In this document: positions 3,167-64,000 of the stretch, in pieces
Numbering within the stretch: position 1 is the stretch's first letter
How the letters are laid out: each line of letters opens with the position of its first letter
Source of the DNA: Candidatus Altiarchaeota archaeon
GTDB lineage: Archaea; Altiarchaeota; Altiarchaeia; IMC4; SCGC-AAA252-I15
Length of the DNA stretch: 64,000 nt
Assembly (NCBI GenBank): GCA_043800255.1
Contig: JAZDNF010000009.1
Location: forward strand, 293,847-357,846
Reading direction: 5' to 3'
Made by a program: the position numbers and the translations under genes
Notes under the pieces: generated by a model
What the model was told of the DNA's origin: nothing
Seen by the model: only the letters and a program-made list of their open reading frames with translations
Database searches by the model: none

Positions 3167-3422
3167 TTTAACCCACCTTCCGTTCAGATAATGTAGATAT
3201 TGTAGGCTAGATTATTATACTTTGTTCAATAAAAACATGCAATAGAACACACTATCTGGAAAACAGGCAGAAAACAACAGACTAACCAGATGTCAAGAAC
3301 CGCCAATCATAGACCGGCAGCATGAAATCAAAGGGGAGATATTCTTGACAGAAGATTTCCACCCACTAGCAAATAGCCTGGTGGAAATCTTAGATTTATA
3401 CCACAAACACCATAATCAACAC

Positions 3423-52634: not shown

Positions 52635-52655
52635 TGTTCGAACCTCCACACTTGA

Positions 52656-52700
52656 TGGAGGCGGTTCTATTAATTGCTTTTGTTTGTAATAGGTAATCAT
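52656..52700 (+). repeat. Scaffold repeat A, copy 1 (lipoprotein promoter)
   Basis: tggaggcggttctattaattgcttttgt identical to 60668-60695. Confidence 0.9.
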
Positions 52701-53799
52701 GCGCTTGGTGGCTGCAGTCCTCATAGGGATCGTGCTGTTTAGCGGTTGCGCCCAGGAGGAGGAAGTGACTGTCAGCTCAACAATCCCGGAGAATGCTTTA
52801 GAGCCTGTAACCGTTCCACAAAAAGAGGAAGCTACTGTCAGCTCGACCCTCCCTGAGGAAACTACCATCGAGCCGACAATCCTGCGAGGAACTCCGGACT
52901 CCGACTTTTCAGTAGAAGTCTACAAACCTGACAAAGCCTATGCCGGCACCACGCTGCTGCCAGACAATCACAACCCCGGCAAACCGAGGGTGATAGAGGT
53001 GAACATGCTGGGGGAAATCGTCTGGGAGTATGTGCTTCCCTCAAATTTGAGGCAGTACACCAATCCCGGCTTCGATGTCGAACTACTATCAGATGATAAC
53101 ATCATGTTCGTCTTGCCTCGCAAGGGCGTGTACGAAATCAACAGGGAGGGCGGAGTCGTCTGGTCTTACTTGGACGAAAAAGTGTCCCACGATGCGGACA
53201 GGCTGTCGAACGGCAACACCCTTGTCGTATTCGGCAACAACGACAAGATGGCCGACGCCCAAGTGAAGGAAGTAAGTCCTGATGGAACAATCGTCTGGTC
53301 TTGGCATGCGAAAGACCATTTTTCCGAGGAGTATAAGGACATCAGCAACCAAGGCTGGACTCACACCAACGCGGTAACAAGGCTCGAAAACGGCAACACC
53401 CTGATCAGCCCGAGAAACTTTGACATGCTTGTGGAAGTCGACTCGCAGGGCTCGGTTGTCCGGACAATTGGCAGGGACTATCTGAAGAAACAGCACGATC
53501 CTGAGATTCTCGGGAACGGCAATATACTGCTGGCAAACCACGGCACGCCTCATGAGGTGTTGGAGATCAACCCGGAAACGGATGAAATAGTCTGGCGTTT
53601 CCCGATGTCCAGCCGAAAAACACAGCCTGTCCGAGACGCTAACCGCCTCCCCAACGGCAACACACTAATCACCGGCTCGACGGTGATACTCGAAGTCACA
53701 CCCGACAAGGAGATAGTCTGGAAGCTCAACTTGAAGGAGGGCATGTTCAAACCCGAAGAATCAGCAGAGCGAGGCTTCTACAAAGCAGAAAGAATCTGA
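52699..53799 (+). CDS. Arylsulfotransferase-like beta-propeller lipoprotein
   Basis: FSGC lipobox; repeated HDADRL.NGNTL, WTHTNA, QHDP motifs. Confidence 0.75.
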   Translation: MRLVAAVLIGIVLFSGCAQEEEVTVSSTIPENALEPVTVPQKEEATVSSTLPEETTIEPTILRGTPDSDFSVEVYKPDKAYAGTTLLPDNHNPGKPRVIEVNMLGEIVWEYVLPSNLRQYTNPGFDVELLSDDNIMFVLPRKGVYEINREGGVVWSYLDEKVSHDADRLSNGNTLVVFGNNDKMADAQVKEVSPDGTIVWSWHAKDHFSEEYKDISNQGWTHTNAVTRLENGNTLISPRNFDMLVEVDSQGSVVRTIGRDYLKKQHDPEILGNGNILLANHGTPHEVLEINPETDEIVWRFPMSSRKTQPVRDANRLPNGNTLITGSTVILEVTPDKEIVWKLNLKEGMFKPEESAERGFYKAERI

Positions 53800-53885
53800 T
53801 TAACCGCTTTTCAACTTCGATATTTGCATTTTTAAATGGGTTTTCTTTGATGATTAAGGGGAAACAAAATAGCGAGGTTGTCATA

Positions 53886-54080
53886 ATGAATAAGAGTTAT
53901 AACTTCTACATGGGGGCTGACTTGAGTTCCCATATTGGCGAATGGATTGCCATTTGTGAGGATAAGATCGTTTCACACGGCGATAACGCAAAAAAGGTAT
54001 TTGAGAAGGCAGAAAGGTTGTGCGATAATAAGAGGATTTTACTCACTAAAGTTCCTGAAAAGGAAACTATGATTTTCTGA
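53886..54080 (+). CDS. DUF5678-like small protein
   Basis: GEWIAI...IVSHG.NAKKV..KA; typical partner of retropepsin-like proteases. Confidence 0.75.
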   Translation: MNKSYNFYMGADLSSHIGEWIAICEDKIVSHGDNAKKVFEKAERLCDNKRILLTKVPEKETMIF

Positions 54081-54085
54081 TTGGG

Positions 54086-54511
54086 ATGGTTCTGATCTTT
54101 AAGTACAAAGCATTTAAGAGACCTGATGGAACCCTTGCGAAGATTCCTTGTATCCCCGTATGCTTACAGCATAAAACGTCTTTTGATACGGTAGCCTTAT
54201 TAGACTCTGGTGCGGAGGTATCGACAATCCCGAAGGAGATAGGCGAGGTACTCGGTCTCGACCTATCAGGCAAAACCAGGATATCTTAGGGTATTGGAGG
54301 GGCCGTAAATTCAATCGATAGAACGGTTGTGGTTACCCTACAGGATCATCATGAGAAATACTCCTTCAAAATACCATTCAAAATAGTTCTGGACAAGTAT
54401 GATTTTCCAGTAATAATGGGGAGAGCAGGCTTCTTTGATAAGTTCCTAATCACAATTGACGAAGGCGAAGAAAAAGTAAAGTTGAAAAGAAAGACGAGAC
54501 ATAGTTACTAA
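54086..54511 (+). pseudogene. Retropepsin-like aspartyl protease interrupted by an in-frame TAG (54287-54289)
   Basis: ALLDSGA...RIS*GIGG...VIMGRAGFF; the two track ORFs are in the same frame. Confidence 0.8.
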
Positions 54512-54697
54512 AAATCCAATTTTTAGGCAGATTCTAATGAGGCCACCGAACGAACACAAGCCCAAAAACTAACCCGTAAACTTGCCCTTGCTGAAACCCA
54601 ACGCACCAGAATCTCCTGTTTTAGAATTCCTCTGCCCCGAGGATTTTTTAGGTCTTTATCCTAAAGGGGGATGATTTGTTCAAATTCCGCTAAGCGT

Positions 54698-55612
54698 CTA
54701 TCTCTTTTTTGTTTTTGTGTATTTTTCGATTGCCTCTTTTTTTATGAGCCAGTTTCTGCCGATTTTTAATGCTTCGATTCTCCCTTTTCTCGCAAGCAGG
54801 CTCAGGTATTCCTGCGAGTACTGCGTTCCTTTCGAGGCTTCGGCCAAGCTTATGTATTCAGACCCGCTTTTGAACGTGTCCAAGTACAAGTCCAGGCTTC
54901 TTTCAACGTTTCGTCCTATGAAGTCTATGAACGGTTTTATGCTTCCCTTGTCTGCTTTCTTCAGCCTGTCGTAGTATTTTTTCCTGTCCACTCTAAGCAC
55001 CATTGTTACCGGGTAACCGTGCCTCATGAGATACATGTTCATGAGCAATCTTGAGCATCTGCCGTTTCCGTCCGAGAACGGGTGTATCTCGACGAGGCGG
55101 TAGTGGGCCACGGAAGCGAGCTCTATGATGTTGAGTTTGTCCGGGTTTTTGTTTAGGTAGTCCACGTATTCTCTCATCTTCTGCCGGACCTTCTCAAATC
55201 TGGGCGGGCTTTTGACCGCTCCGAGAATCCGCACGTTTATGTCTCTGTACCTGCCGGCGTATTTGTCGTCAATGCCCGCTAAAACAACCCCGTGTATGCC
55301 CCGTATCATGTCCTCTGTCACCGGCATCTTTTTCTTGACTAAACCCTCCAGCAGCTCAAACGCCTTCTGGTGGTTCAACGCCTCGAAATGCTCTCTCAAC
55401 GGCTTGCCTTTTATGGTAATCCCTTCTTCGATAACGAGCCTTGTTTCGTTTAACGTTAGAGAATTGCCCTCTATCGCGTTCGAATTGTAGGCAAGTTCTA
55501 TTGCAAACTGCTTCCTGAGCCTCTCAAGAGCAGTTTTCGGCAGAGGCCTTAAAGCGTTCAACTCCTTCTTTTTCGAGATTATCCTCTCGTAGAGGTTCTT
55601 GTCCAATATCAT
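54698..55612 (-). CDS. Fic protein with C-terminal HTH
   Basis: SNAIEGN inhibitory helix, HPFSDGNGRCSR, C-terminal YISLAEA..YSQEYLSLLARKG..KIGRNW. Confidence 0.93.
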   Translation of the reverse strand: MILDKNLYERIISKKKELNALRPLPKTALERLRKQFAIELAYNSNAIEGNSLTLNETRLVIEEGITIKGKPLREHFEALNHQKAFELLEGLVKKKMPVTEDMIRGIHGVVLAGIDDKYAGRYRDINVRILGAVKSPPRFEKVRQKMREYVDYLNKNPDKLNIIELASVAHYRLVEIHPFSDGNGRCSRLLMNMYLMRHGYPVTMVLRVDRKKYYDRLKKADKGSIKPFIDFIGRNVERSLDLYLDTFKSGSEYISLAEASKGTQYSQEYLSLLARKGRIEALKIGRNWLIKKEAIEKYTKTKKR

Positions 55613-55623
55613 TGTAAGTTATT

Positions 55624-55658
55624 GTATCGGATAGCTTATAAATACGTCTATCCGATAC
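55624..55658. promoter_or_regulatory. Perfect 11-bp inverted repeat around the TATA box of the fic gene
   Basis: GTATCGGATAG-cttataaatacgt-CTATCCGATAC. Confidence 0.75.
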
Positions 55659-55772
55659 TTTAACCCCCGGATCAACTAGATGTGAGAAAAAGATACGCTC
55701 AGTTCTCAGACTCTAACAAAAAAAAGTCTGAAACCCCGATAGGACATTTAACAGTTTGTTAACTTTTTCGCG

Positions 55773-55849
55773 TGGGGGAAGAGGTTAAGCGGTATCCGGT
55801 TTCATTGGACAAATTCTTTTTTGTCCACACAATTCTTACACCTGGCCGC
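55773..55849 (+). repeat. Scaffold repeats C+D contiguous (empty site)
   Basis: C resembles 61921-61952; D (55800-55849) resembles 62731-62780. Confidence 0.8.
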
Positions 55850-55917
55850 CTGCCGCTCCCGCAAAAAGCAGCAGGGCAGCGAACCAGACAAAAACCGTGT
55901 TTTTCATGATTTTCTCC

Positions 55918-56250
55918 CTATTTTCTGACCTTTATCTTTTCAGCGAACTTGCGAGCGTCAGCCAACTGTTCCATGAGGACTTCTCGCATGATGTCGCATG
56001 CTTTCACCACCTTCGGGTTCGCTATCTTGTAGTATATTTTCAGTCCGTCCCTTCTGGTTTCGACGATTTTTTTGGCCCGCATTACAGCCAGGTGCTGCGA
56101 GAGGTTGGCTTTGCGTATCCTCATCTCGGTGGCCAGCTCGTCAACCGACTTTTCCCCGTTCCTCAAGAGGTTTATTACCTCCAGCCTCTTCGGATTGGAC
56201 ATGGTCTTACAGACGTCCGCATGCAGTTCATAAACTTGTTTATCTGTCAT
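55918..56250 (-). CDS. ArsR/SmtB family regulator
   Basis: HADVCKTMSNPKRLEVI, NLSQHLAVMR, KACD. Confidence 0.9.
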   Translation of the reverse strand: MTDKQVYELHADVCKTMSNPKRLEVINLLRNGEKSVDELATEMRIRKANLSQHLAVMRAKKIVETRRDGLKIYYKIANPKVVKACDIMREVLMEQLADARKFAEKIKVRK

Positions 56251-56262
56251 TCTATCCTCCCC

Positions 56263-56673
56263 TCATATGTTTTTCCACACTTTCGCCAGCGACTGTCCGC
56301 CGACGTGGATCTTGAACTCCAGGAAATACCCGAACGGCGTTGTGTCTGCCTCAAAGCCTTTTTCGGTCAGCTTCGCCTTGAGCGCTTCAATGATCTCCCC
56401 TGCGAACCCTATGCTCGACTTGCTGTCGGACAGGTGTGCGAAAGAATGCAGGACAACCCTGCTCCTCCCTACTTTCCGGGCAAGCCAGCTTATGTTCCCG
56501 ACCGCATCCTTCAGGACGGAATCCCTGCGCCCCTCATCCTCCTTCTCGGACTGGAGGAAAACGACGACGGCGTTGTCTATTCTGTGCTCCTTGTCCACGG
56601 CCTCCACGCTTTCCAATGTCTTGCTGTGCGTCCTGTACCAGAACTCCGGCGAGTCGAACATTAATAATTTCAT
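56263..56673 (-). CDS. Free-standing threonyl-tRNA synthetase editing-domain-like protein
   Basis: MKLLMF, LHSFAHLSDSKS, TPFGYF..F.IHV.G. Confidence 0.82.
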   Translation of the reverse strand: MKLLMFDSPEFWYRTHSKTLESVEAVDKEHRIDNAVVVFLQSEKEDEGRRDSVLKDAVGNISWLARKVGRSRVVLHSFAHLSDSKSSIGFAGEIIEALKAKLTEKGFEADTTPFGYFLEFKIHVGGQSLAKVWKNI

Positions 56674-56696
56674 ATGTTCAAATAATTGAATATATG
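56671..56696. promoter_or_regulatory. ArsR-type operator
   Basis: CATATGTTCAA-ataa-TTGAATATATG inverted repeat (1 mismatch) over the start codon. Confidence 0.6.
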
Positions 56697-56788
56697 GATA
56701 TAGATGCTTGAGTATAAAAACGCGACAGTAACCGAAAAGAAACGGAACCCGGCTAATGCACCGCATAGCAGATTAGTTTGGACTCTGA

Positions 56789-56808
56789 AGCCCCGATTGG
56801 GATTTGAA
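56789..56808 (-). other. Isolated tRNA 3' fragment (att-like remnant)
   Basis: Minus strand TTCAAAT CCCAA TCGGGGC T = T-loop, T-stem 3' strand, acceptor 3' strand, discriminator; no 5' half. Confidence 0.5.
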
Positions 56809-56866
56809 GAATCTGTTCGGATTAGGCGGGGGAGACCCTATATGACTACACTCTGCGGCCATGTAG

Positions 56867-57808
56867 TCATATACCATTTAGGGTATTCCTAAGCCTATCA
56901 TATGACTTCAGCATTAGTTCTATGCTAGGCCTGAGGTTACCTTCTTTTTCATATACCTGGAGCGTAGAATAGTACTCCATACTAGATTTTAACTCTATAT
57001 TCGCTGGTGGAAGGCCGTGTTTCAAGAGTATGTTGTTCATCAATAGTCTCCCCACTCTGCCATTTCCATCCTCAAAGGGGTGGATGTTCTCGAACTGGTT
57101 GTGAACAACAGCGGCAAGGACAATAGGATGATAATGTTTCTTGTTTTCTGCGTACCATTCCACGAGTTCCTTTAGAAGGCTCAAGACCTGCTTTTGTGGT
57201 GCACCTCTATGGAGGACCTCACCGTATCGGGTTTTAACGACTACTTCAACTCCATGGGAGCGTAGCCTACCTGCAAACCCTTTAGAGTTCTTGAAGACCA
57301 TCTTGTGCAGCCCCCTCATCAATTCGATTGACAAGTGTTCCTTAGTTTTCCTAATCAACTTGATTGCGTCAGCAACACCATATGTTTCAGCAATCTCATC
57401 CTTCGCCTTGTCTGGCCACTTGTCGTTCTCCAATATGTTTTTCACTTCCGCAAGATTGACGGTCGAGCCTTCTATGGCGTTCGTGTTATATGTAAAAAGC
57501 TCCGTAAACCTAACCCACTGCTCCTCAGAGAGATGGCTAATCTTGATGTCGTGCTTTCCTATCAGGGATTTTATAGATGCCATCTCCGAAGGAGACAAAA
57601 CAGTCTTTAATGGGTCACTGATGTTCTTATCCGCCTCAGCCCGCCACATCAGCGCCTTCTCAGCGGCAGGCCGCAACGAAGCGACCTCCTTCTCAGCAAG
57701 GTTGACGCCTAGATACTTCCTCAGCTTCTTAACTTTGCCTTCGTGACGGAAAGAATGGGCCACATAATAGAACTTCTTCCCACCGCGCTCCTGAACCTCA
57801 ATATGCAT
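56867..57808 (-). CDS. Fic protein with N-terminal beta-sheet DNA-binding-like domain
   Basis: KKFYYVAHSFRHEGKVKKLRKYLG; TNAIEGS; HPFEDGNGRVGR. Confidence 0.92.
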   Translation of the reverse strand: MHIEVQERGGKKFYYVAHSFRHEGKVKKLRKYLGVNLAEKEVASLRPAAEKALMWRAEADKNISDPLKTVLSPSEMASIKSLIGKHDIKISHLSEEQWVRFTELFTYNTNAIEGSTVNLAEVKNILENDKWPDKAKDEIAETYGVADAIKLIRKTKEHLSIELMRGLHKMVFKNSKGFAGRLRSHGVEVVVKTRYGEVLHRGAPQKQVLSLLKELVEWYAENKKHYHPIVLAAVVHNQFENIHPFEDGNGRVGRLLMNNILLKHGLPPANIELKSSMEYYSTLQVYEKEGNLRPSIELMLKSYDRLRNTLNGI

Positions 57809-57818
57809 CAGATAGTAT

Positions 57819-57862
57819 ATATGACTACAAGTTTAAATATGACTACAAGGATATGACTACAA
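57819..57862 (+). repeat. Three direct copies of ATATGACTACAA
   Basis: 57819, 57837, 57851; the same motif forms an inverted pair at 56839-56873. Confidence 0.9.
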
Positions 57863-58082
57863 ACAGAACTAAGTGTTCGAATCCCTCAAGAGGTTTCGAC
57901 AACACAAGCTACAGACGCTAAAAGGCCAGTATACTGCTTAAACGGCGAGTATCGCCCCGATCGGAACTAGAACTTTTTGCCACATTTTCCGGGGGAAACT
58001 CGTTATAAAGGCTGTATGGGGGCATTTTGACATGTTCCCATAAACGATGTTTTTAGTACAATGTATAGTCTAGGTCGTCCGC

Positions 58083-59045
58083 TTAGTCCATGTACTTGTA
58101 GTACACTTTGAAGAATTTACGGTAGGTGTCCTTGTATTTCTCCAGGAAGAATCTCTCAAGGGTGGATGTGTAGCCCCGGTCAAAATCTCCCAAGGACTTT
58201 ACGTATGATGTCCTTTGAGTTTTTCGTATGATTAGAGGCGGATACCCGTTACGCATCAAAATGATATTCGAGAGGAATCTGCCTACCCGCCCATTACCGT
58301 CTGCGAATGGGTGGATTTTCTCGAATCTCGCGTGGAAATGCGCTGAAACCCTAAGCGGGTGGGTCTTCTCCAGTGCCTCGTCATGCCATCTGATAAGATT
58401 CGTCAGTTCTTCCTGGGCTTTCTCTGGGGGAGTCAGCTGCACCTGGCTGCCGACAAGGAAGTTAGGATATTTTTTGTAGCCAATCCTGGAGTCAATGTCC
58501 TTCAAAAGGATTTTATGCATCCGCAAGATGTCTTTCTCCGCGACCTTGAACTTGTTTTTCAATACGAGGTCCATGACATGCCTGGAGTTCTTCGTCTCGT
58601 AGACTTCCCGCAGGTCCTTCCCCTCCGGAGACCTGCCGTCGAACATGACTACGGCGACATCCTTCAGCGTGAGACTATTTCCCTCAATGGCGTTGGATTC
58701 GTATGTGAAGTTGGCCGTGAACCTGTCGAACACGTCCCTATACTGTTCCCTGCTGAAGCTTTTCAGCATCCGATTATATTCGACCTTCATTTCCTCTACT
58801 TTGGAAATCTGTTGTTTTGTGAAGATACTGTCGGCAGCATACTTGGAGAGAGCATATTCTAGATTAACTCTCTTCTCCTCCCCCTCCATATACTCCGCAT
58901 ATTTCTTGGTCGCGGCCTCAAGACCCGGATTCTTTTTATCATTGACCAGCCGCTGCAAGGTCTTGACTGAGCCATCTGGCAACCTAACCGACTTAGTAAG
59001 GTATCTGTACTTTCTGCCGCGGATAACCTTGTCCTTAAAGTACAT
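58083..59045 (-). CDS. Fic protein with N-terminal beta-sheet domain
   Basis: RGRKYRYLTKSVRLPDG; SNAIEGN; HPFADGNGRVGR. Confidence 0.92.
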   Translation of the reverse strand: MYFKDKVIRGRKYRYLTKSVRLPDGSVKTLQRLVNDKKNPGLEAATKKYAEYMEGEEKRVNLEYALSKYAADSIFTKQQISKVEEMKVEYNRMLKSFSREQYRDVFDRFTANFTYESNAIEGNSLTLKDVAVVMFDGRSPEGKDLREVYETKNSRHVMDLVLKNKFKVAEKDILRMHKILLKDIDSRIGYKKYPNFLVGSQVQLTPPEKAQEELTNLIRWHDEALEKTHPLRVSAHFHARFEKIHPFADGNGRVGRFLSNIILMRNGYPPLIIRKTQRTSYVKSLGDFDRGYTSTLERFFLEKYKDTYRKFFKVYYKYMD

Positions 59046-59275
59046 GGGGTACTATTAGACCTACAATTATATAAATATAAAAAAATGTAGGGGTAACAGA
59101 TAATTTGGGCCTATTTAGGCCTTCAAGGATTCAAACCCCCACATACTCCACAAACCCGCACTAAACTGGCTAAAGATGGAGCATATCACGTAAACTTTGG
59201 GTCACCCCGATCGGGCTTACGACAGTTTGAGCAAAAACTGTTATACACAGATGGTGCTGAAGGTGGGGGAACTAA

Positions 59276-60565
59276 CTACCTTTGGTCTTCCAGAAGCCAT
59301 TTCCAGAGTGGTGTATAGGTTATGTTGTTTTCTTTTTTCTCTGTGTCCGCGGTTAATATCAGCATTTCCTTGATTTTCGGGTGTTTTTTCTTGAATTCCT
59401 GCAGCGATTTCACTTCTCTTTCGTCTATTTTGTCGGTGTAGGAAACGTTTATCGCCGTTAGCGTCTGGTCCTTGTTTTTCACTATGAAGTCGACTTCATC
59501 CTTCTCCTTCCAGTAGTAGACGTCGCTGTCCGCCCTCCTCAGCTGGAGGTAGACGAGGTTTTCGGCGAGTTTTCCTTCGTCCTCGGAGAACCTGAAGCTG
59601 GCTGCGTTCCTAAGGCCGTTGTCTATGCAGTATATTTTAGAGGGGTTTGTCTTCTGCTCCTTCAGCGAGTAGGAGAAATGGTCTATCGTGAAGAACAGGA
59701 ACGCCTCCTTGTAGTAGGACATGTAGTCTTTTATGGACTCGTAGGACAGACCAAGAGAGTTCCGAAGGTTCCGCAGCGACACCAGCCCAGTAAAGTTCGT
59801 TATGATGTATAGTGCGAGGTCTTTAGTCTTCTGGCTGTTCAGGTTGTGTCTGTCTATTATGTCTTTGTAGAGTATGTCCTCGAAATACTGGGCGAGCACC
59901 TTCGTTTTGAACTCCTTGTCCTTGAAGAACACGTCAGGGAATCCGCCGTGCTCGAAATACTCCTTCAGAGCGTTTATTATGGAATGTTTTGTCTTGTCGA
60001 GGATTATGCCCTTTCTCAGCTTGGCGGAGTCAACCTCTAACTTCTTGAAGGATAGGAATTCCTTGAAACTAAGGGGGAAGACTTCGAACGTCAGGTTCCT
60101 GCCGGTAAGCAGAGTCGAATACTCCCTCTTCAACAGGTAGGAGCATGACCCGGATATGATGAACTTGCAGTTGGAACTAAGGTCGTAGTGCTTCCTAACC
60201 CACGACTCCCAGCCGTCCCTCCTATGCACTTCATCCAAAAATACGTACGCCTTCTTGTCGGGGTTCAAGTTCCCCCGATAGGTAGTGTAAATGTCGTCCA
60301 ATGAATCCTTTGCCAGCTTATTGTCCTCCAAGTTCACGAAAAGAACCTGCTCCGGCGTAACACCATCCTTCAGGAGATTATCCACCATCTGATACATCAA
60401 AGTGCTCTTCCCCGACCTCCTGACACCGGTGATGATTATAACTTCCTTTATGGACACGGACTTCAGGAGCAAAGCATAATCTTTCCTCTCCTTACCCCTT
60501 AGTACTTTAGGAACCTTGCCGTTCTGCCACCAGGGATTAGCCTCCGAAAGCTTACCTAGTTCCAT
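59276..60565 (-). CDS. AAA+ ATPase with DUF4143/PD-(D/E)xK C-terminus
   Basis: NPWW, GVRRSGKS, FLDEV, LTGR, GGFP, KIYCIDNG, EVDF. Confidence 0.9.
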   Translation of the reverse strand: MELGKLSEANPWWQNGKVPKVLRGKERKDYALLLKSVSIKEVIIITGVRRSGKSTLMYQMVDNLLKDGVTPEQVLFVNLEDNKLAKDSLDDIYTTYRGNLNPDKKAYVFLDEVHRRDGWESWVRKHYDLSSNCKFIISGSCSYLLKREYSTLLTGRNLTFEVFPLSFKEFLSFKKLEVDSAKLRKGIILDKTKHSIINALKEYFEHGGFPDVFFKDKEFKTKVLAQYFEDILYKDIIDRHNLNSQKTKDLALYIITNFTGLVSLRNLRNSLGLSYESIKDYMSYYKEAFLFFTIDHFSYSLKEQKTNPSKIYCIDNGLRNAASFRFSEDEGKLAENLVYLQLRRADSDVYYWKEKDEVDFIVKNKDQTLTAINVSYTDKIDEREVKSLQEFKKKHPKIKEMLILTADTEKKENNITYTPLWKWLLEDQR

Positions 60566-60667
60566 GCTACGTTATAATGTAACATACAAGCTTAAAAAGG
60601 CTACGGTAGAACGTAACACAACAAAACAGGGGACTGAACAAAATGTGCAAAACCCCGCCAACCCGGG

Positions 60668-60712
60668 TGGAGGCGGTTCTATTAATTGCTTTTGTCTGTG
60701 ATATGTAAGCTA
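60668..60712 (+). repeat. Scaffold repeat A, copy 2
   Basis: 28-nt identity with 52656-52683 and further similarity up to the ATG. Confidence 0.9.
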
Positions 60713-61830
60713 TGAGAGTGGAGCTGCTGGTCTTATTAGTGGTCCTGTTAAGCGGCTGCGTCGGCAGACCTCCTGAAACCCCGACTACTTTGGAGGTTGC
60801 ATCCACAACCATTGCTGTGACCTCTATGATGGAGGTTTTAACGACAACTTCAACTACTAGTGCATCCTCAACAACCACCATACTCACGATATCAGACGCG
60901 ATAGAGGACAACTGCATCGGCTTCCTCGTCGGCGCTCCTGAGGATATGGGAACAATCGCCGTGGTTGGTGCCGGCTGGGCTAGGCCGCATCCGGGGCCGT
61001 TCGCTTGGGGTTGGATAGAAAAGACTAGGGGAGAGTATGATTTCAGTGCGGTTGACGAGTATGTGAGGCGCGCTCAGGAGAACAATGTTGCCATACTCGC
61101 GACCGTCTGGCCTTACGCCGACTGGGATCATGAGGAGTGCCATTCTGTCGAATGCGATGTGTCGGAGGGGGACATCTTCTATCCGCGAAAAAAATTCTCC
61201 TCAGTTGAGGGAATCCCGAGGAAGCGTTGCATCCCCTGCGATTTGGATGCGTATAAGGTTTTCGTCTCAAAACTCGTTGACAGATATGATGGCGACGGCG
61301 TTGATGACATGCCTGGCCTAACGCTTCCCATCATCTATTATGAGATATTGAACGAGCCGTCGATGCAGGAGGAAGATTTGACCTTCTTCAGGGGCACTCC
61401 AGCGGAATATGTCGAAATCATCAGAGCATCATATGAGGCGGTCAAGGGAACCTGTCCTGAGTGTAGGGTTGTCCAAGCGGGAGCGTCTGGCATCCATGAC
61501 GAGCCTATCAGGTTCTGGGATGATGCTTTTGCCCTCGGCGCCGGCGACTATTTTGACGTGGCGAACATCCATTTCATAGGCTCCGGCGACCTCTCAACAT
61601 TAAACGTGGGGGACTTTAAGAAGCTGATGGGCAAGCATTCCATCGACAAACCGGTCTGGGTCACTGAGGCTGAATTCCGGGGTATTGGAGAAGTCGACGG
61701 TGCGGTGACCGGCGCATTGAACGCTGGCGCGGAGAGGATATTCTTCACGGGATTCGGCGCGGGCCACGAACCCCTGCAAAAACCCGGACAATTCGCCCAA
61801 CTGTACAAAACCCAGCGCGACAAATGCTGA
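60712..61830 (+). CDS. GH39/GH5-like glycoside hydrolase lipoprotein
   Basis: LSGC lipobox, T-rich linker, YEILNEP, NIHF, VWVTE; DGDGVDD Ca-loop. Confidence 0.75.
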   Translation: MRVELLVLLVVLLSGCVGRPPETPTTLEVASTTIAVTSMMEVLTTTSTTSASSTTTILTISDAIEDNCIGFLVGAPEDMGTIAVVGAGWARPHPGPFAWGWIEKTRGEYDFSAVDEYVRRAQENNVAILATVWPYADWDHEECHSVECDVSEGDIFYPRKKFSSVEGIPRKRCIPCDLDAYKVFVSKLVDRYDGDGVDDMPGLTLPIIYYEILNEPSMQEEDLTFFRGTPAEYVEIIRASYEAVKGTCPECRVVQAGASGIHDEPIRFWDDAFALGAGDYFDVANIHFIGSGDLSTLNVGDFKKLMGKHSIDKPVWVTEAEFRGIGEVDGAVTGALNAGAERIFFTGFGAGHEPLQKPGQFAQLYKTQRDKC

Positions 61831-62019
61831 GGATCAAATCAATGCTCTCATTCCCAACACTTAACAGAGATACACGACTAACAGAACCCGCCCCTACTGA
61901 AACCCAACACGCCCTTGCAATGGGGTGGAGAGGTTAGACGGCGTCCGGTCTCTGACTGGTTGTTTTTCACATTGAGCATTTATATATTTGAGATACATAT
62001 GTTATACAAGGTGATATAA

Positions 62020-62256
62020 ATGAGTGTGCAGTTGAATGTGAGGACAACACCTGTACTGGTTGATGAAGTAGACAAGGTAGTAGAGAAAGGCTACTTCAGG
62101 AACAGGACTGAGGCAGTGAACGAGGCCCTGAGGCTTTTGATCAGAAGGTACCAGCTGATGAGACTGGAGGAGCGGATGAACAAAGTCGGTGAAAGAACGA
62201 GAGAGCTGCCGAGCGTGACCGACGCTGTTGTCAACTCGCATAGAGAAGAAGACTAG
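62020..62256 (+). CDS. RHH antitoxin (VapB-like)
   Basis: QLNVR..LVDEVDKVVEKGYFRNRTEAVNEALR. Confidence 0.85.
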   Translation: MSVQLNVRTTPVLVDEVDKVVEKGYFRNRTEAVNEALRLLIRRYQLMRLEERMNKVGERTRELPSVTDAVVNSHREED

Positions 62257-62257
62257 A

Positions 62258-62713
62258 ATGGTTGAGTGCATTGATGCCAGTGTGGTGGTAAAGTGGTTCA
62301 AAAAGGATGAACCATACAGAAAGGAAGCTGAGAAGCTTTACCGGAGGATAAGAGATCTTGAAACAGAGTTTGTGGCAAGTGAATGGATCCTCCTCGAAGT
62401 TACTCGGGGTCTGGTGAAAGCCAATGTCAAAAGAGAAGACAGTGAGGAGGCATGCGACATACTAAATGATCTGTTCTCAGTGGGCGCTGTGAAAAGGATT
62501 CCGGTTTCGGGTGTGATGGATTCTGCCAACGGCATTGAGTTGGATTTGAATCTTTACGCTGCAGATGCAGTGCATCTTGCAACCGCAATAATCACAAACT
62601 CCAGAATACTCTGGAGCGAGGACGAGCACCTGCACAAAAAGAACGTAACAGAATACGCCAGAAAACATGGACTGAATATACAGAAGCTAAGTAAAATCAG
62701 ATCAAACGAATAA
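62258..62713 (+). CDS. vapC: PIN-domain toxin
   Basis: IDASVVVKW, E, LYAADAVHLA, SED. Confidence 0.9.
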   Translation: MVECIDASVVVKWFKKDEPYRKEAEKLYRRIRDLETEFVASEWILLEVTRGLVKANVKREDSEEACDILNDLFSVGAVKRIPVSGVMDSANGIELDLNLYAADAVHLATAIITNSRILWSEDEHLHKKNVTEYARKHGLNIQKLSKIRSNE

Positions 62714-63113
62714 TCTCAGTCAAATCTCGATTTCATTTGACAGGTTCTTTTTTCTCCACACGGTTCTTACACCTCGCCGCGAACAACTCGCCCCCATACT
62801 GGAGAACCCGGTTCCACACGCTTCTGTCAATACTCTTCAAACAATGCGATTCCACCAGTCTATTGACTGGTGGTCTGGCGGAATCGCGTGTGTAACAACC
62901 GCCGGTTCTCGGAAATGCCGCCGATCTCTGACCAGCGGTTGTTTACATACGACGCTTCCGCACCACAAACCGAACACTTCATTCCCGTTCCCTCCGTTCA
63001 ACACTAAACACTATCAACTACAAATTAAAAAACCCAACAGAAAAAAGATTAGCCCCGGGAGCGAAGTGAAGAAAAAAGATTTATTTGTAAATTTTAATTA
63101 ATATACCTAACAC

Positions 63114-63686: not shown

Positions 63687-64000
63687 AAAATGAAAGAGGG
63701 ATTAGGGGTGAATGTCATTTTTCAAAACGGAAAAAATCAAATTTATAAGAATTGAGGAAAGCCTATCATAAAAGTTAAGAACGAAAAATATTTTTTGAAC
63801 TCACTCCGCTACGCTTCGTGCCACGCTGCGCTCTCCTCCTTTCAGTCGTCGGGGCGTATAACAAGGGATATACGGTTCGGGGCTCGGCTCGCCCCTCACC
63901 CAAACCACCGGTTTAGCAATTAGAAGTCCCGTGTATAAATGTGATTTGTGCAAGTGAGGACAAGTAAGATAAAACATCAAAGAAACAAAAATTAGCCCCG

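Follow-up and report, generated by a model that had tools for sequence, protein, structure and literature searches.

Toxin genes of a variable island in a Candidatus Altiarchaeota genome resemble minor cargo of an ordinary integrase system that targets tRNA genes

How does an archaeal genome come to hold several toxin and defence genes side by side, in a region where short non-coding blocks recur around unrelated genes? This question is raised by positions 51–63 kb of a 64,000-nt stretch of DNA from a Candidatus Altiarchaeota archaeon. The stretch, called the window here, is the last 64 kb of contig JAZDNF010000009.1 (C7 below) in a 1.75-Mb assembly of 17 contigs that is 93% complete, and coordinates without a contig name are positions in it. 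An earlier note on this DNA had described four blocks, A, B, C and D, that occur twice in the region, with a gene for a Fic-domain toxin (fic1) between B and C in copy 1 and a vapBC toxin–antitoxin pair between C and D in copy 2, and had proposed that the blocks are landing pads, possibly of an unrecognised cassette-exchange system. The answer reached here is a different one: the toxin genes resemble minor cargo of an ordinary integrase system that targets tRNA genes, and not components of a new machine for cassette exchange. With moderate confidence, we read the 51–63 kb region as a variable island of defence and toxin genes that was assembled by integrase-type insertion of units without an integrase of their own. 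The observations behind this reading are the repeats, the unit boundaries, the homologues on the tRNA side, an integrase with its neighbours, and one joint seen in the sampled population.

The region holds three Fic genes, all on the minus strand, i.e., fic1 (54698–55612), fic2 (56867–57808) and fic3 (58083–59045). Each is the single gene of a unit, 1094, 1164 and 1250 nt long, respectively, that is bounded by imperfect repeats resembling the 3′ end of tRNA-Asp. A palindromic core of these repeats, CCCCGATCGGG, has six matches with at most one mismatch in the 1.75 Mb, three of which lie in the window at 56791, 57955 and 59205, within 2.5 kb and 1164 and 1250 nt apart, each 70–115 nt downstream of fic2, fic3 or an ATPase gene. 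Read on the opposite strand, the window cores continue into TTCAAATCCCRATCGGGGC, a stretch that aligns to the T-arm and the 3′ acceptor strand of the genome's own tRNA-Asp (C11:73490–73620). The three repeats, on the minus strand, extend over 56777–56836 (downstream of fic2, together with a conserved element-end module), 57942–57984 (between fic3 and fic2, identified by alignment and by a profile of the attachment-site-like, or att-like, copies) and 59191–59235 (downstream of the ATPase gene). The second of them belongs to a module of about 105 nt that also stands beside a PIN-MazE gene pair of the integrase element described below. Two more degenerate copies flank fic1 at ~54633 and ~55727, ~1094 nt apart. 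The upstream copy (55722–55763, minus strand) reaches a profile E value of 7.9e-4, its sequence being part of the training set, and the downstream copy (54628–54650, minus strand) was seen in the alignment and is not an independent nhmmer match. T-loop-like words are not enriched in the island.

The earlier note had seen no integrase or transposase in the window, which is borne out for the five families covered (integrase, Y1 transposase, TnpB, serine recombinase and DDE_Tnp_1 transposase), and it had suggested a search for a recombinase acting in trans. Such a candidate exists: the assembly contains a single PF00589 gene, at C7:191024–192073, ~155 kb upstream and outside the window, whereas TnpB, Y1 and serine recombinase genes were not detected in the assembly and the one DDE transposase lies on C9. 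The gene stands between att-like repeats at C7:189609 and C7:200299, which delimit a ~10.7-kb element (C7:189600–200330, locus L022), and the fourth CCCCGATCGGG core match lies 1.4 kb from the 3′ end of the gene. The repeat at C7:189609, 1.4 kb from the integrase, copies part of the tRNA-Asp 3′ end and has a further 30 nt in common with the downstream flank of the true tRNA, and the copy at C7:200299 is homologous over ~45 nt to the stretch downstream of fic2. As cargo, the element carries a Vsr endonuclease and a C5 DNA methylase (a restriction–modification pair), a winged helix-turn-helix gene, and the PIN-MazE pair, which is itself bracketed by att-like copies. The integrase, which carries a C-terminal zinc ribbon, scores 94 bits against the archaeal XerA model (cut-off 220) and 48.7 bits against the integron-integrase (IntI) model (cut-off 265).

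This integrase is 89–91% identical to its homologues in three relatives (G015, G002 and G012) and 75% identical to that in a fourth (G027), a set that covers other genera and another family, whereas ordinary genes between those genera show 64–77% DNA identity. The homologues lie 37–500 nt from tRNA-Asp in G012 and G015 and beside tRNA-Glu in G027, with the integrase gene facing the tRNA in the relatives. We conclude that the C7 gene encodes a mobile tyrosine integrase that targets tRNA-Asp. Since the fic1 repeats derive from the 3′ end of tRNA-Asp, the target of this integrase family, the likely mechanism is of a known type.

The three Fic proteins match PF02661 with 72–76 bits (76 bits for fic1) and keep the active-site motif HxFx(D/E)GNGR intact, as HPFSDGNGR, HPFEDGNGR and HPFADGNGR in fic1, fic2 and fic3, respectively, together with an N-terminal (S/T)xxxE(G/N) motif, which reads SNAIEG, TNAIEG and SNAIEG. 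In class II Fic proteins, an inhibitory motif of this type lies in the same chain as the active site. Fic1–3 are presumably self-inhibited single-gene modules, given their in-chain motif. They thus resemble class II, SoFic-type candidate defence genes in having HPFxDGNGR and the N-terminal motif in one chain, and their best PADLOC matches are SoFic and PDC-S04. Unlike these, fic1 adds a C-terminal excisionase-type helix-turn-helix (HTH; residues 253–300, TIGR01764, 29.6 bits vs. cut-off 28.8) and a matching palindromic operator. This promoter/operator (55613–55658, minus strand) is a 10-nt inverted repeat, TATCGGATAG/CTATCCGATA, around a TATA box; the repeat is perfect in three of four homologues inspected, and the fourth (L007) has two mismatches in the left arm. 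Both the inverted repeat and the excisionase-family HTH are common to fic1 and its homologues in four other genera. From this arrangement, Fic1 probably represses its own promoter, and a role of the HTH in recombination directionality is conceivable.

Homologues of fic1 occur in eight other genomes, where the match extends only from the operator to the stop codon, with 70–74% identity. All eight loci were inspected, two of them (G027 and G032) being cut by contig ends, and five were searched for repeats. In four of the five, tRNA-derived direct repeats of 11–17 nt stand around a cassette of 1.08–1.26 kb. In G033, the order is tRNA-Met, tRNA-Tyr, tRNA-Asp and fic, followed by ordinary genes, and a perfect 14-nt direct repeat, CCCGACCGGGGCGA, encloses fic, its copies being 1081 nt apart. 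G014 has a perfect 17-nt repeat 1238 nt apart, plus a second block of 23 nt, and the Fic unit of G004 adjoins tRNA-Ser and has two perfect 11-nt repeats. In G036, a 239-aa open reading frame (ORF) lies between tRNA-Asp and a 14-nt fragment (86% identity), with fic next to it, so that here the repeat encloses the neighbouring cassette and not fic. Insertion beside an intact tRNA gene is seen in G033, G036 and G004. A clean empty tRNA-Asp site was not obtained from the sister species G038, in which the downstream DNA is unrelated. The recurrence of one and the same type of minimal single-gene unit between repeats in several genera is unusual, and it is what the comparison with relatives, which the earlier note had called for, yielded; blocks A–D did not appear in it (0/48 genomes).

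The sampled population adds one further observation. Three groundwater metagenome runs from one study hold 8–13% of the region's sampled words; their contigs cannot show absence, and window bins left uncovered, several of them in all three runs, were not counted as evidence. In run X1, a contig (depth 3, shorter side 66 nt) joins 56790 to 59205 with seven shared letters and thereby skips 2414 nt with fic2 and fic3. The joint falls inside the CCCCGAT core, i.e., it runs from the repeat downstream of fic2 to the repeat downstream of the ATPase gene. An additional joint lies inside fic3, from 58325 to 58687. Of the structural variants that the earlier note had asked for, the X1 contig gives one candidate, the joint that skips fic2 and fic3. 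Together with the fic1 operator and the promoter of vapBC, this joint agrees with the view in that note that the toxin modules are discrete units which have their own promoters and behave as insertions.

On the reading preferred here, the island would have grown by repeated insertion of small self-contained modules. The repeats of the Fic units, derived from the last ~13 nt of tRNA-Asp plus flank, would be attachment sites of the mobile tRNA-Asp tyrosine integrase family. The units, which have no integrase of their own, would be moved in trans by the tRNA-Asp integrase, or else they may be ends that persisted from decayed elements and were stacked through tandem accretion, as for bacterial cis-mobilizable elements (CIMEs). 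vapBC is a separate unit of 775 nt between imperfect repeats of ~30 nt, the left one being a degenerate copy of a genome-wide hairpin repeat.

What, then, are blocks A–D? Block A (A1, 52643–52750; A2, 60655–60760; both on the plus strand, as are all blocks below) aligns as 109 nt at 74%, or 54 nt at 83%, and includes an identical run of 28 nt (52656–52683 = 60668–60695). As the earlier note had said, each copy leads into a different lipoprotein, and both ORFs have a lipobox (..LFSGC and ..LLSGC). A1 comprises a small hairpin (with a weak fold, z −1.6), the TATA-like TATTAAT and the first 17 codons, i.e., signal peptide and lipobox, of an arylsulfotransferase (ASST)-like lipoprotein. Block D (D1, 55797–55849; D2, 62728–62780) is a T-rich, terminator-like 53-mer in copy 1 and matches at 85%, with the left part of D2 doubling as the right copy of the repeat around vapBC. 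Block B (B1, 54568–54607; B2, 61873–61913) matches over 29 nt at 79% (54579–54607 vs. 61885–61913), including the 17 of 19 letters noted before, and only one of 3000 dinucleotide shuffles reached its local-alignment score. Block C (C1, 55773–55803; C2, 61921–61952) matches over ~30 nt at 77% (55774–55803 vs. 61923–61952). Its part outside the overlap with D is not significant alone, as 234 of 3000 shuffles reached the score, and it becomes significant (0/2000) when extended into CCGGTYTC and beyond, into D. The duplicated scaffold is thus real for A and D and significant for B, whereas C is marginal on its own.

The order, orientation and reciprocal gaps of these blocks are as first described. 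All four are collinear, as in a segmental duplication; B and C are 7–12 nt apart in copy 2 vs. ~1165 nt in copy 1, and C and D overlap by 7 nt (CGGTTTC) in copy 1 and lie 775 nt apart in copy 2. By their arrangement, A would be a promoter and signal peptide (small hairpin, TATA-like box, ~24 nt, ATG, lipoprotein signal peptide), the T-run of D a putative plus-strand terminator, and B and C a probable 3′ region. Three other identities were tried. D was rejected as the conserved end (3′) of a gene on the minus strand: a 22-codon ORF ends in D1, and copy 2 has no counterpart. A decayed hairpin repeat as the origin of D found no support, as 787 and 213 of 2000 shuffles reached the score. For B as a tRNA 3′ fragment, the match, CTGAAACCC, to two att-like copies is 9 nt long and too weak for a claim.

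The proposal that a trans-acting recombinase inserts and removes modules precisely at A–D as dedicated landing pads draws on this collinearity with its filled and empty gaps, on the 7-nt overlap and the longer imperfect repeats around vapBC, and on the fact that each variable gap contains a defence or toxin module. However, several findings go against it. BLAST and profile searches gave exactly two copies of each block in the 1.75-Mb assembly, the very outcome that the earlier note had named as speaking against its proposal. DNA queries with A and with C–D matched none of 48 other genomes of the order, a set that includes none from the same species or genus; the core pattern of A had no match in the metagenome contigs and the pattern of D none in the genome contig collection, and the surroundings of orthologous lipoprotein genes showed nothing similar to A–D. 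On neither strand does B2–C2, a stretch with one attC-type core pair, fold better than shuffles (z −0.21 and −0.07), the folding of D and A is likewise unremarkable, and the number of attC-type cores is within chance. C is not significant by itself, and the fic1 insert brings its own att-like repeats, with ends that coincide with no repeat common to B or C. We consider landing pads of an unrecognised system very improbable. Instead, A–D is a private, local paralogy in two copies, made up of the non-coding parts that frame a lipoprotein transcription unit, the route of its duplication being one that we infer rather than observe. Its value is that of an internal reference only, which exposes the stretches that are insertions.

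The same two copies might be explained by an old local duplication of the lipoprotein locus and later, unrelated changes of a non-specific kind (insertions, deletions, gene replacement), with the tRNA-like repeats as debris that plays no role today. This would fit the presence of two copies only, whose ~220 alignable nt are ~80% identical and are separated by DNA that cannot be aligned, the degeneracy of the att-like repeats in the window, and the lack of a tRNA or an integrase there. However, it would leave unexplained the regular unit sizes (1.08–1.26 kb), the same type of repeat around homologous Fic units in other genera, the clustering of three of the six genomic core matches within 2.5 kb, and a metagenome joint that falls exactly in the core. 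The genes between A and B show no similarity beyond the signal-peptide region (tblastx), so the homologous genes of a segmental duplication are lacking, and the unrelated mature lipoprotein parts are unlike the product of a simple duplication. We regard this history as rather unlikely, though it deserves to be kept in mind.

Alternatively, each copy of A–D could be the conserved backbone of an integrated element, the two elements being related but having arrived independently and with different cargo. Related mobile elements typically have conserved non-coding islands in common while the genes between these are unrelated, the region is part of an island rich in att-like repeats, and the divergence of A–D, ~80%, is of the order of that between genera. 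Yet no att-like repeat brackets either whole A–D unit, neither unit has replication or integration genes, and A and D are absent both from all other genomes searched and from the integrase-bearing element, so that we find two such arrivals distinctly improbable.

The vapBC unit stands apart from the Fic units. It comprises vapB, of the ribbon-helix-helix (RHH) type, and vapC, with a PIN domain (62020–62713, plus strand; domain matches and homologue comparison), and has its own promoter from ~61988, which is conserved with homologues in other genera. The PIN domain scores 45.5 bits vs. a cut-off of 23.6, the 78-aa ORF upstream has only sub-threshold RHH and VapB matches, and the arrangement is that of a type II toxin–antitoxin pair. 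Relative to copy 1, the insert is 61953–62727 (775 nt), between imperfect repeats of ~30 nt. The junction alignment at C/D proposed in the earlier note thus gives, beside the CGGTTTC overlap, a match of 13/15 between TGACTGGTTGTTTTT on the left and TGACAGGTTCTTTTT in D2, a score that 33 of 2000 shuffles reached. The left flank matches the short form of the hairpin repeat (0/2000 shuffles), and this degenerate short copy (61941–61975, plus strand, E 0.17) is the left repeat of vapBC. In G013 and G012, homologues of vapBC lie directly downstream of sequences that resemble tRNA 3′ ends.

The hairpin repeat itself has ~20 copies in the genome, 45–150 nt long, with two hairpins of the CCACCGGTC-TCT-GACCGGTGG type and a conserved GGTTCTTSACA tail. 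A full two-hairpin copy (fold z −4.9) lies at 62846–62948 on the plus strand, and another copy in the window at 3291–3386 on the minus strand; genome copies are found at C1:24207, C2:4130, C5:8912, C5:71908, C7:21462, C7:178013, C8:120087, C8:128799, C8:141547, C9:8634, C11:47372, C11:106066, C11:111071, C14:158863, C15:130908, C16:9643 and C16:62438. The short single-hairpin forms resemble the long form minus the stretch between both hairpins, compensatory changes occur in 3 of 19 predicted pairs, and in about half of the cases a TATA box, ~30 nt from a gene start, adjoins the repeat. Among 48 other genomes of the order, four have its 24-nt core at 96–100% identity; Rfam gave no match to the repeat. 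A palindromic element of the IS200/IS605 type was considered and rejected, as neither a Y1 transposase nor TnpB was found in the assembly. Judging from its form and placement, the repeat could be an RNA, an operator, an insulator or a recombination site, and it could represent a second family of sites, used by vapBC.

Several points weigh against an island built by integrase-type insertion. The window repeats are short and imperfect, with a core of 10–13 nt and two copies ~71% identical over 28 nt, and the att profile search recovered little beyond its own training sequences. ARAGORN found no intact tRNA gene in the window from 48 to 64 kb, nor any with introns allowed on that part of the contig, so the repeats would be secondary or relocated att copies and not a canonical tRNA site. 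The fic1 insert, as measured against copy 2, includes the att-like repeats plus 20–28 nt beyond, and its entry was therefore not by crossover at B or C. Among the relatives, G009 has no repeat at its fic1-homologue locus and G030 a partial copy only. That the integrase acts on the window repeats we infer from its neighbourhood only. The unrelated lipoprotein genes between the conserved A and B are left unexplained by the model. Finally, the population joint is one low-depth contig in which intervening letters between the two sides are possible, and a joint in run X3 that goes back from 60630 to 53653 has no explanation in the model. The X3 contig in question is 3074 nt long and consists of 60577–60630, six other letters, the final 149 nt of the ASST-like gene (53653–53801) and ~2.9 kb unlike the window; it may stem from a related strain in which this DNA is arranged differently, or from a chimeric assembly.

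Insertion of integrase-less units at tRNA-type sites has counterparts among known systems. According to PMC5704250, CIMEs are elements whose att sites are retained while the integration genes are gone, and the island fits the insertion, stacking and decay at att sites described for them. Compared with CIMEs and tandem accretion (ICESt1-type islands of Streptococcus thermophilus), the window units are alike in that they keep attL/attR-like repeats without integration or transfer genes, are stacked in tandem, and share the genome with an integrase of matching specificity. Unlike CIMEs, they have an archaeal host and no conjugation system, each is a single toxin gene of ~1.1 kb, and their mobilisation is putative. 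A further difference speaks against random decay: four genera have units of the same minimal content.

For archaea, PMC6563490 states that elements using tyrosine recombinases form arrays. Like archaeal elements integrated at tRNA genes, the units here have direct repeats from a tRNA 3′ end, and the integrase faces the tRNA in relatives; unlike them, the window copies adjoin no intact tRNA and carry no integrase, and an integrase inside the element is found only in the ~10.7-kb element at C7:189.6–200.3 kb. Integron cassette arrays, including attC clusters without integrase, have also been reported in archaea (PMC9668308), and in the accessible part of that report Altiarchaeota appears only as a tree root. 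The window shares with such arrays small single-function units split by short repeats, toxin modules among the cargo, and a plausible recombinase acting in trans. It differs in that the repeats are tRNA-derived without attC hairpins (z ~0), that fic1 and vapBC have their own conserved promoters, and that Fic genes and vapBC have opposite orientations (minus and plus strand, respectively). An integron reading was rejected: the RYYYAAC/GTTRRRY pattern has six matches in 51–64 kb (three sites, both strands) vs. 2.3 ± 2.0 in mononucleotide shuffles, the window has no PF00589 match, and the single PF00589 gene of the genome is far below the IntI cut-off.

Between 51 and 64 kb, the order is an AbiEii-like pair, the ASST-like lipoprotein, DUF5678 with a split aspartyl-protease-like gene, fic1 (minus), an ArsR regulator and a protein with a ThrRS editing domain (both minus), fic2 and fic3 (minus), an AAA_14/DUF4143 ATPase (minus), the second lipoprotein, vapBC and an OmdA-like gene. 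The first lipoprotein (52699–53799, plus strand) has an ASST-like beta-propeller (PF05935, 50.8 bits) behind its ..LFSGC lipobox. The DUF5678 gene and the aspartyl-protease-like gene, in two ORFs (53847–54511, plus strand), are present in copy 1 only and resemble the candidate defence pair PDC-M52. The DUF5678 match is 46 bits, and the 'protease' is a weak match spread over 54086–54289 and 54329–54511, with a weak PADLOC match to PDC-M52B; the pair may be a broken two-gene defence module. The ArsR-family regulator and the stand-alone ThrRS-editing-domain protein (55918–56766, minus strand) form a pair kept in relatives and are probably host genes. The ATPase (59276–60565, minus strand) belongs to the PADLOC candidate defence family PDC-S01. 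The second lipoprotein (60712–61830, plus strand; lipobox ..LLSGC) has a mature part unrelated to the first, and no relatives were found in the PDB. Of the gene labels given earlier, ASST-like, DUF5678, Fic and PIN are borne out, the 'glycoside hydrolase' label of this second lipoprotein corresponds to a sub-threshold Pfam match (18.2 bits vs. cut-off 21), and the protease is weak over its two ORFs.

A few observations concern the assembly itself. With introns allowed, ARAGORN predicts 36 tRNA genes in the genome, most with long introns (19–1100 nt), and several of the predictions are probably wrong; Rfam found no known RNA family in the window from 48 to 64 kb at E up to 1. The final 141 nt of contig C7 are identical to one end of contig C8, 63803–63904 is 81% identical to C11:141210–141314, and the bin 63803–64000 has a 58–150-fold summed contig depth in the three metagenome runs vs. 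~0–15 elsewhere. The stretch 63803–64000 is a high-copy repeat at an assembly break.

A wider view of the Fic and vapBC units would go beyond this island. We offer as a tentative possibility that Altiarchaeota share a pool of minimal integrase-less toxin cassettes, which would be inserted, stacked and removed in trans by a shared mobile tRNA-Asp integrase at tRNA-derived att sites. Equally tentatively, the cargo of such a pool would comprise small toxin–antitoxin pairs and single Fic genes whose inhibitory motif is built in, one of them with an excisionase-type DNA-binding tail as well, and it is conceivable, if still on the doubtful side, that the whole would be an archaeal functional counterpart of the integron or the CIME on tRNA-derived sites.

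The movement of toxin–antitoxin and defence genes between archaeal genomes is poorly documented, and we found nothing specific in the literature on mobile elements of Altiarchaeota. Whichever origin applies, the A–D scaffold is not to be counted as a new system. If the Fic units are only relics, the island would be an ordinary, well-resolved case of elements accreting and decaying at an attachment site of the tRNA type. Should an integrase encoded elsewhere indeed move the 1.1-kb Fic units, no smaller site-specific mobile unit would have been described from archaea, and the units would offer a concrete, testable route by which defence islands are assembled.

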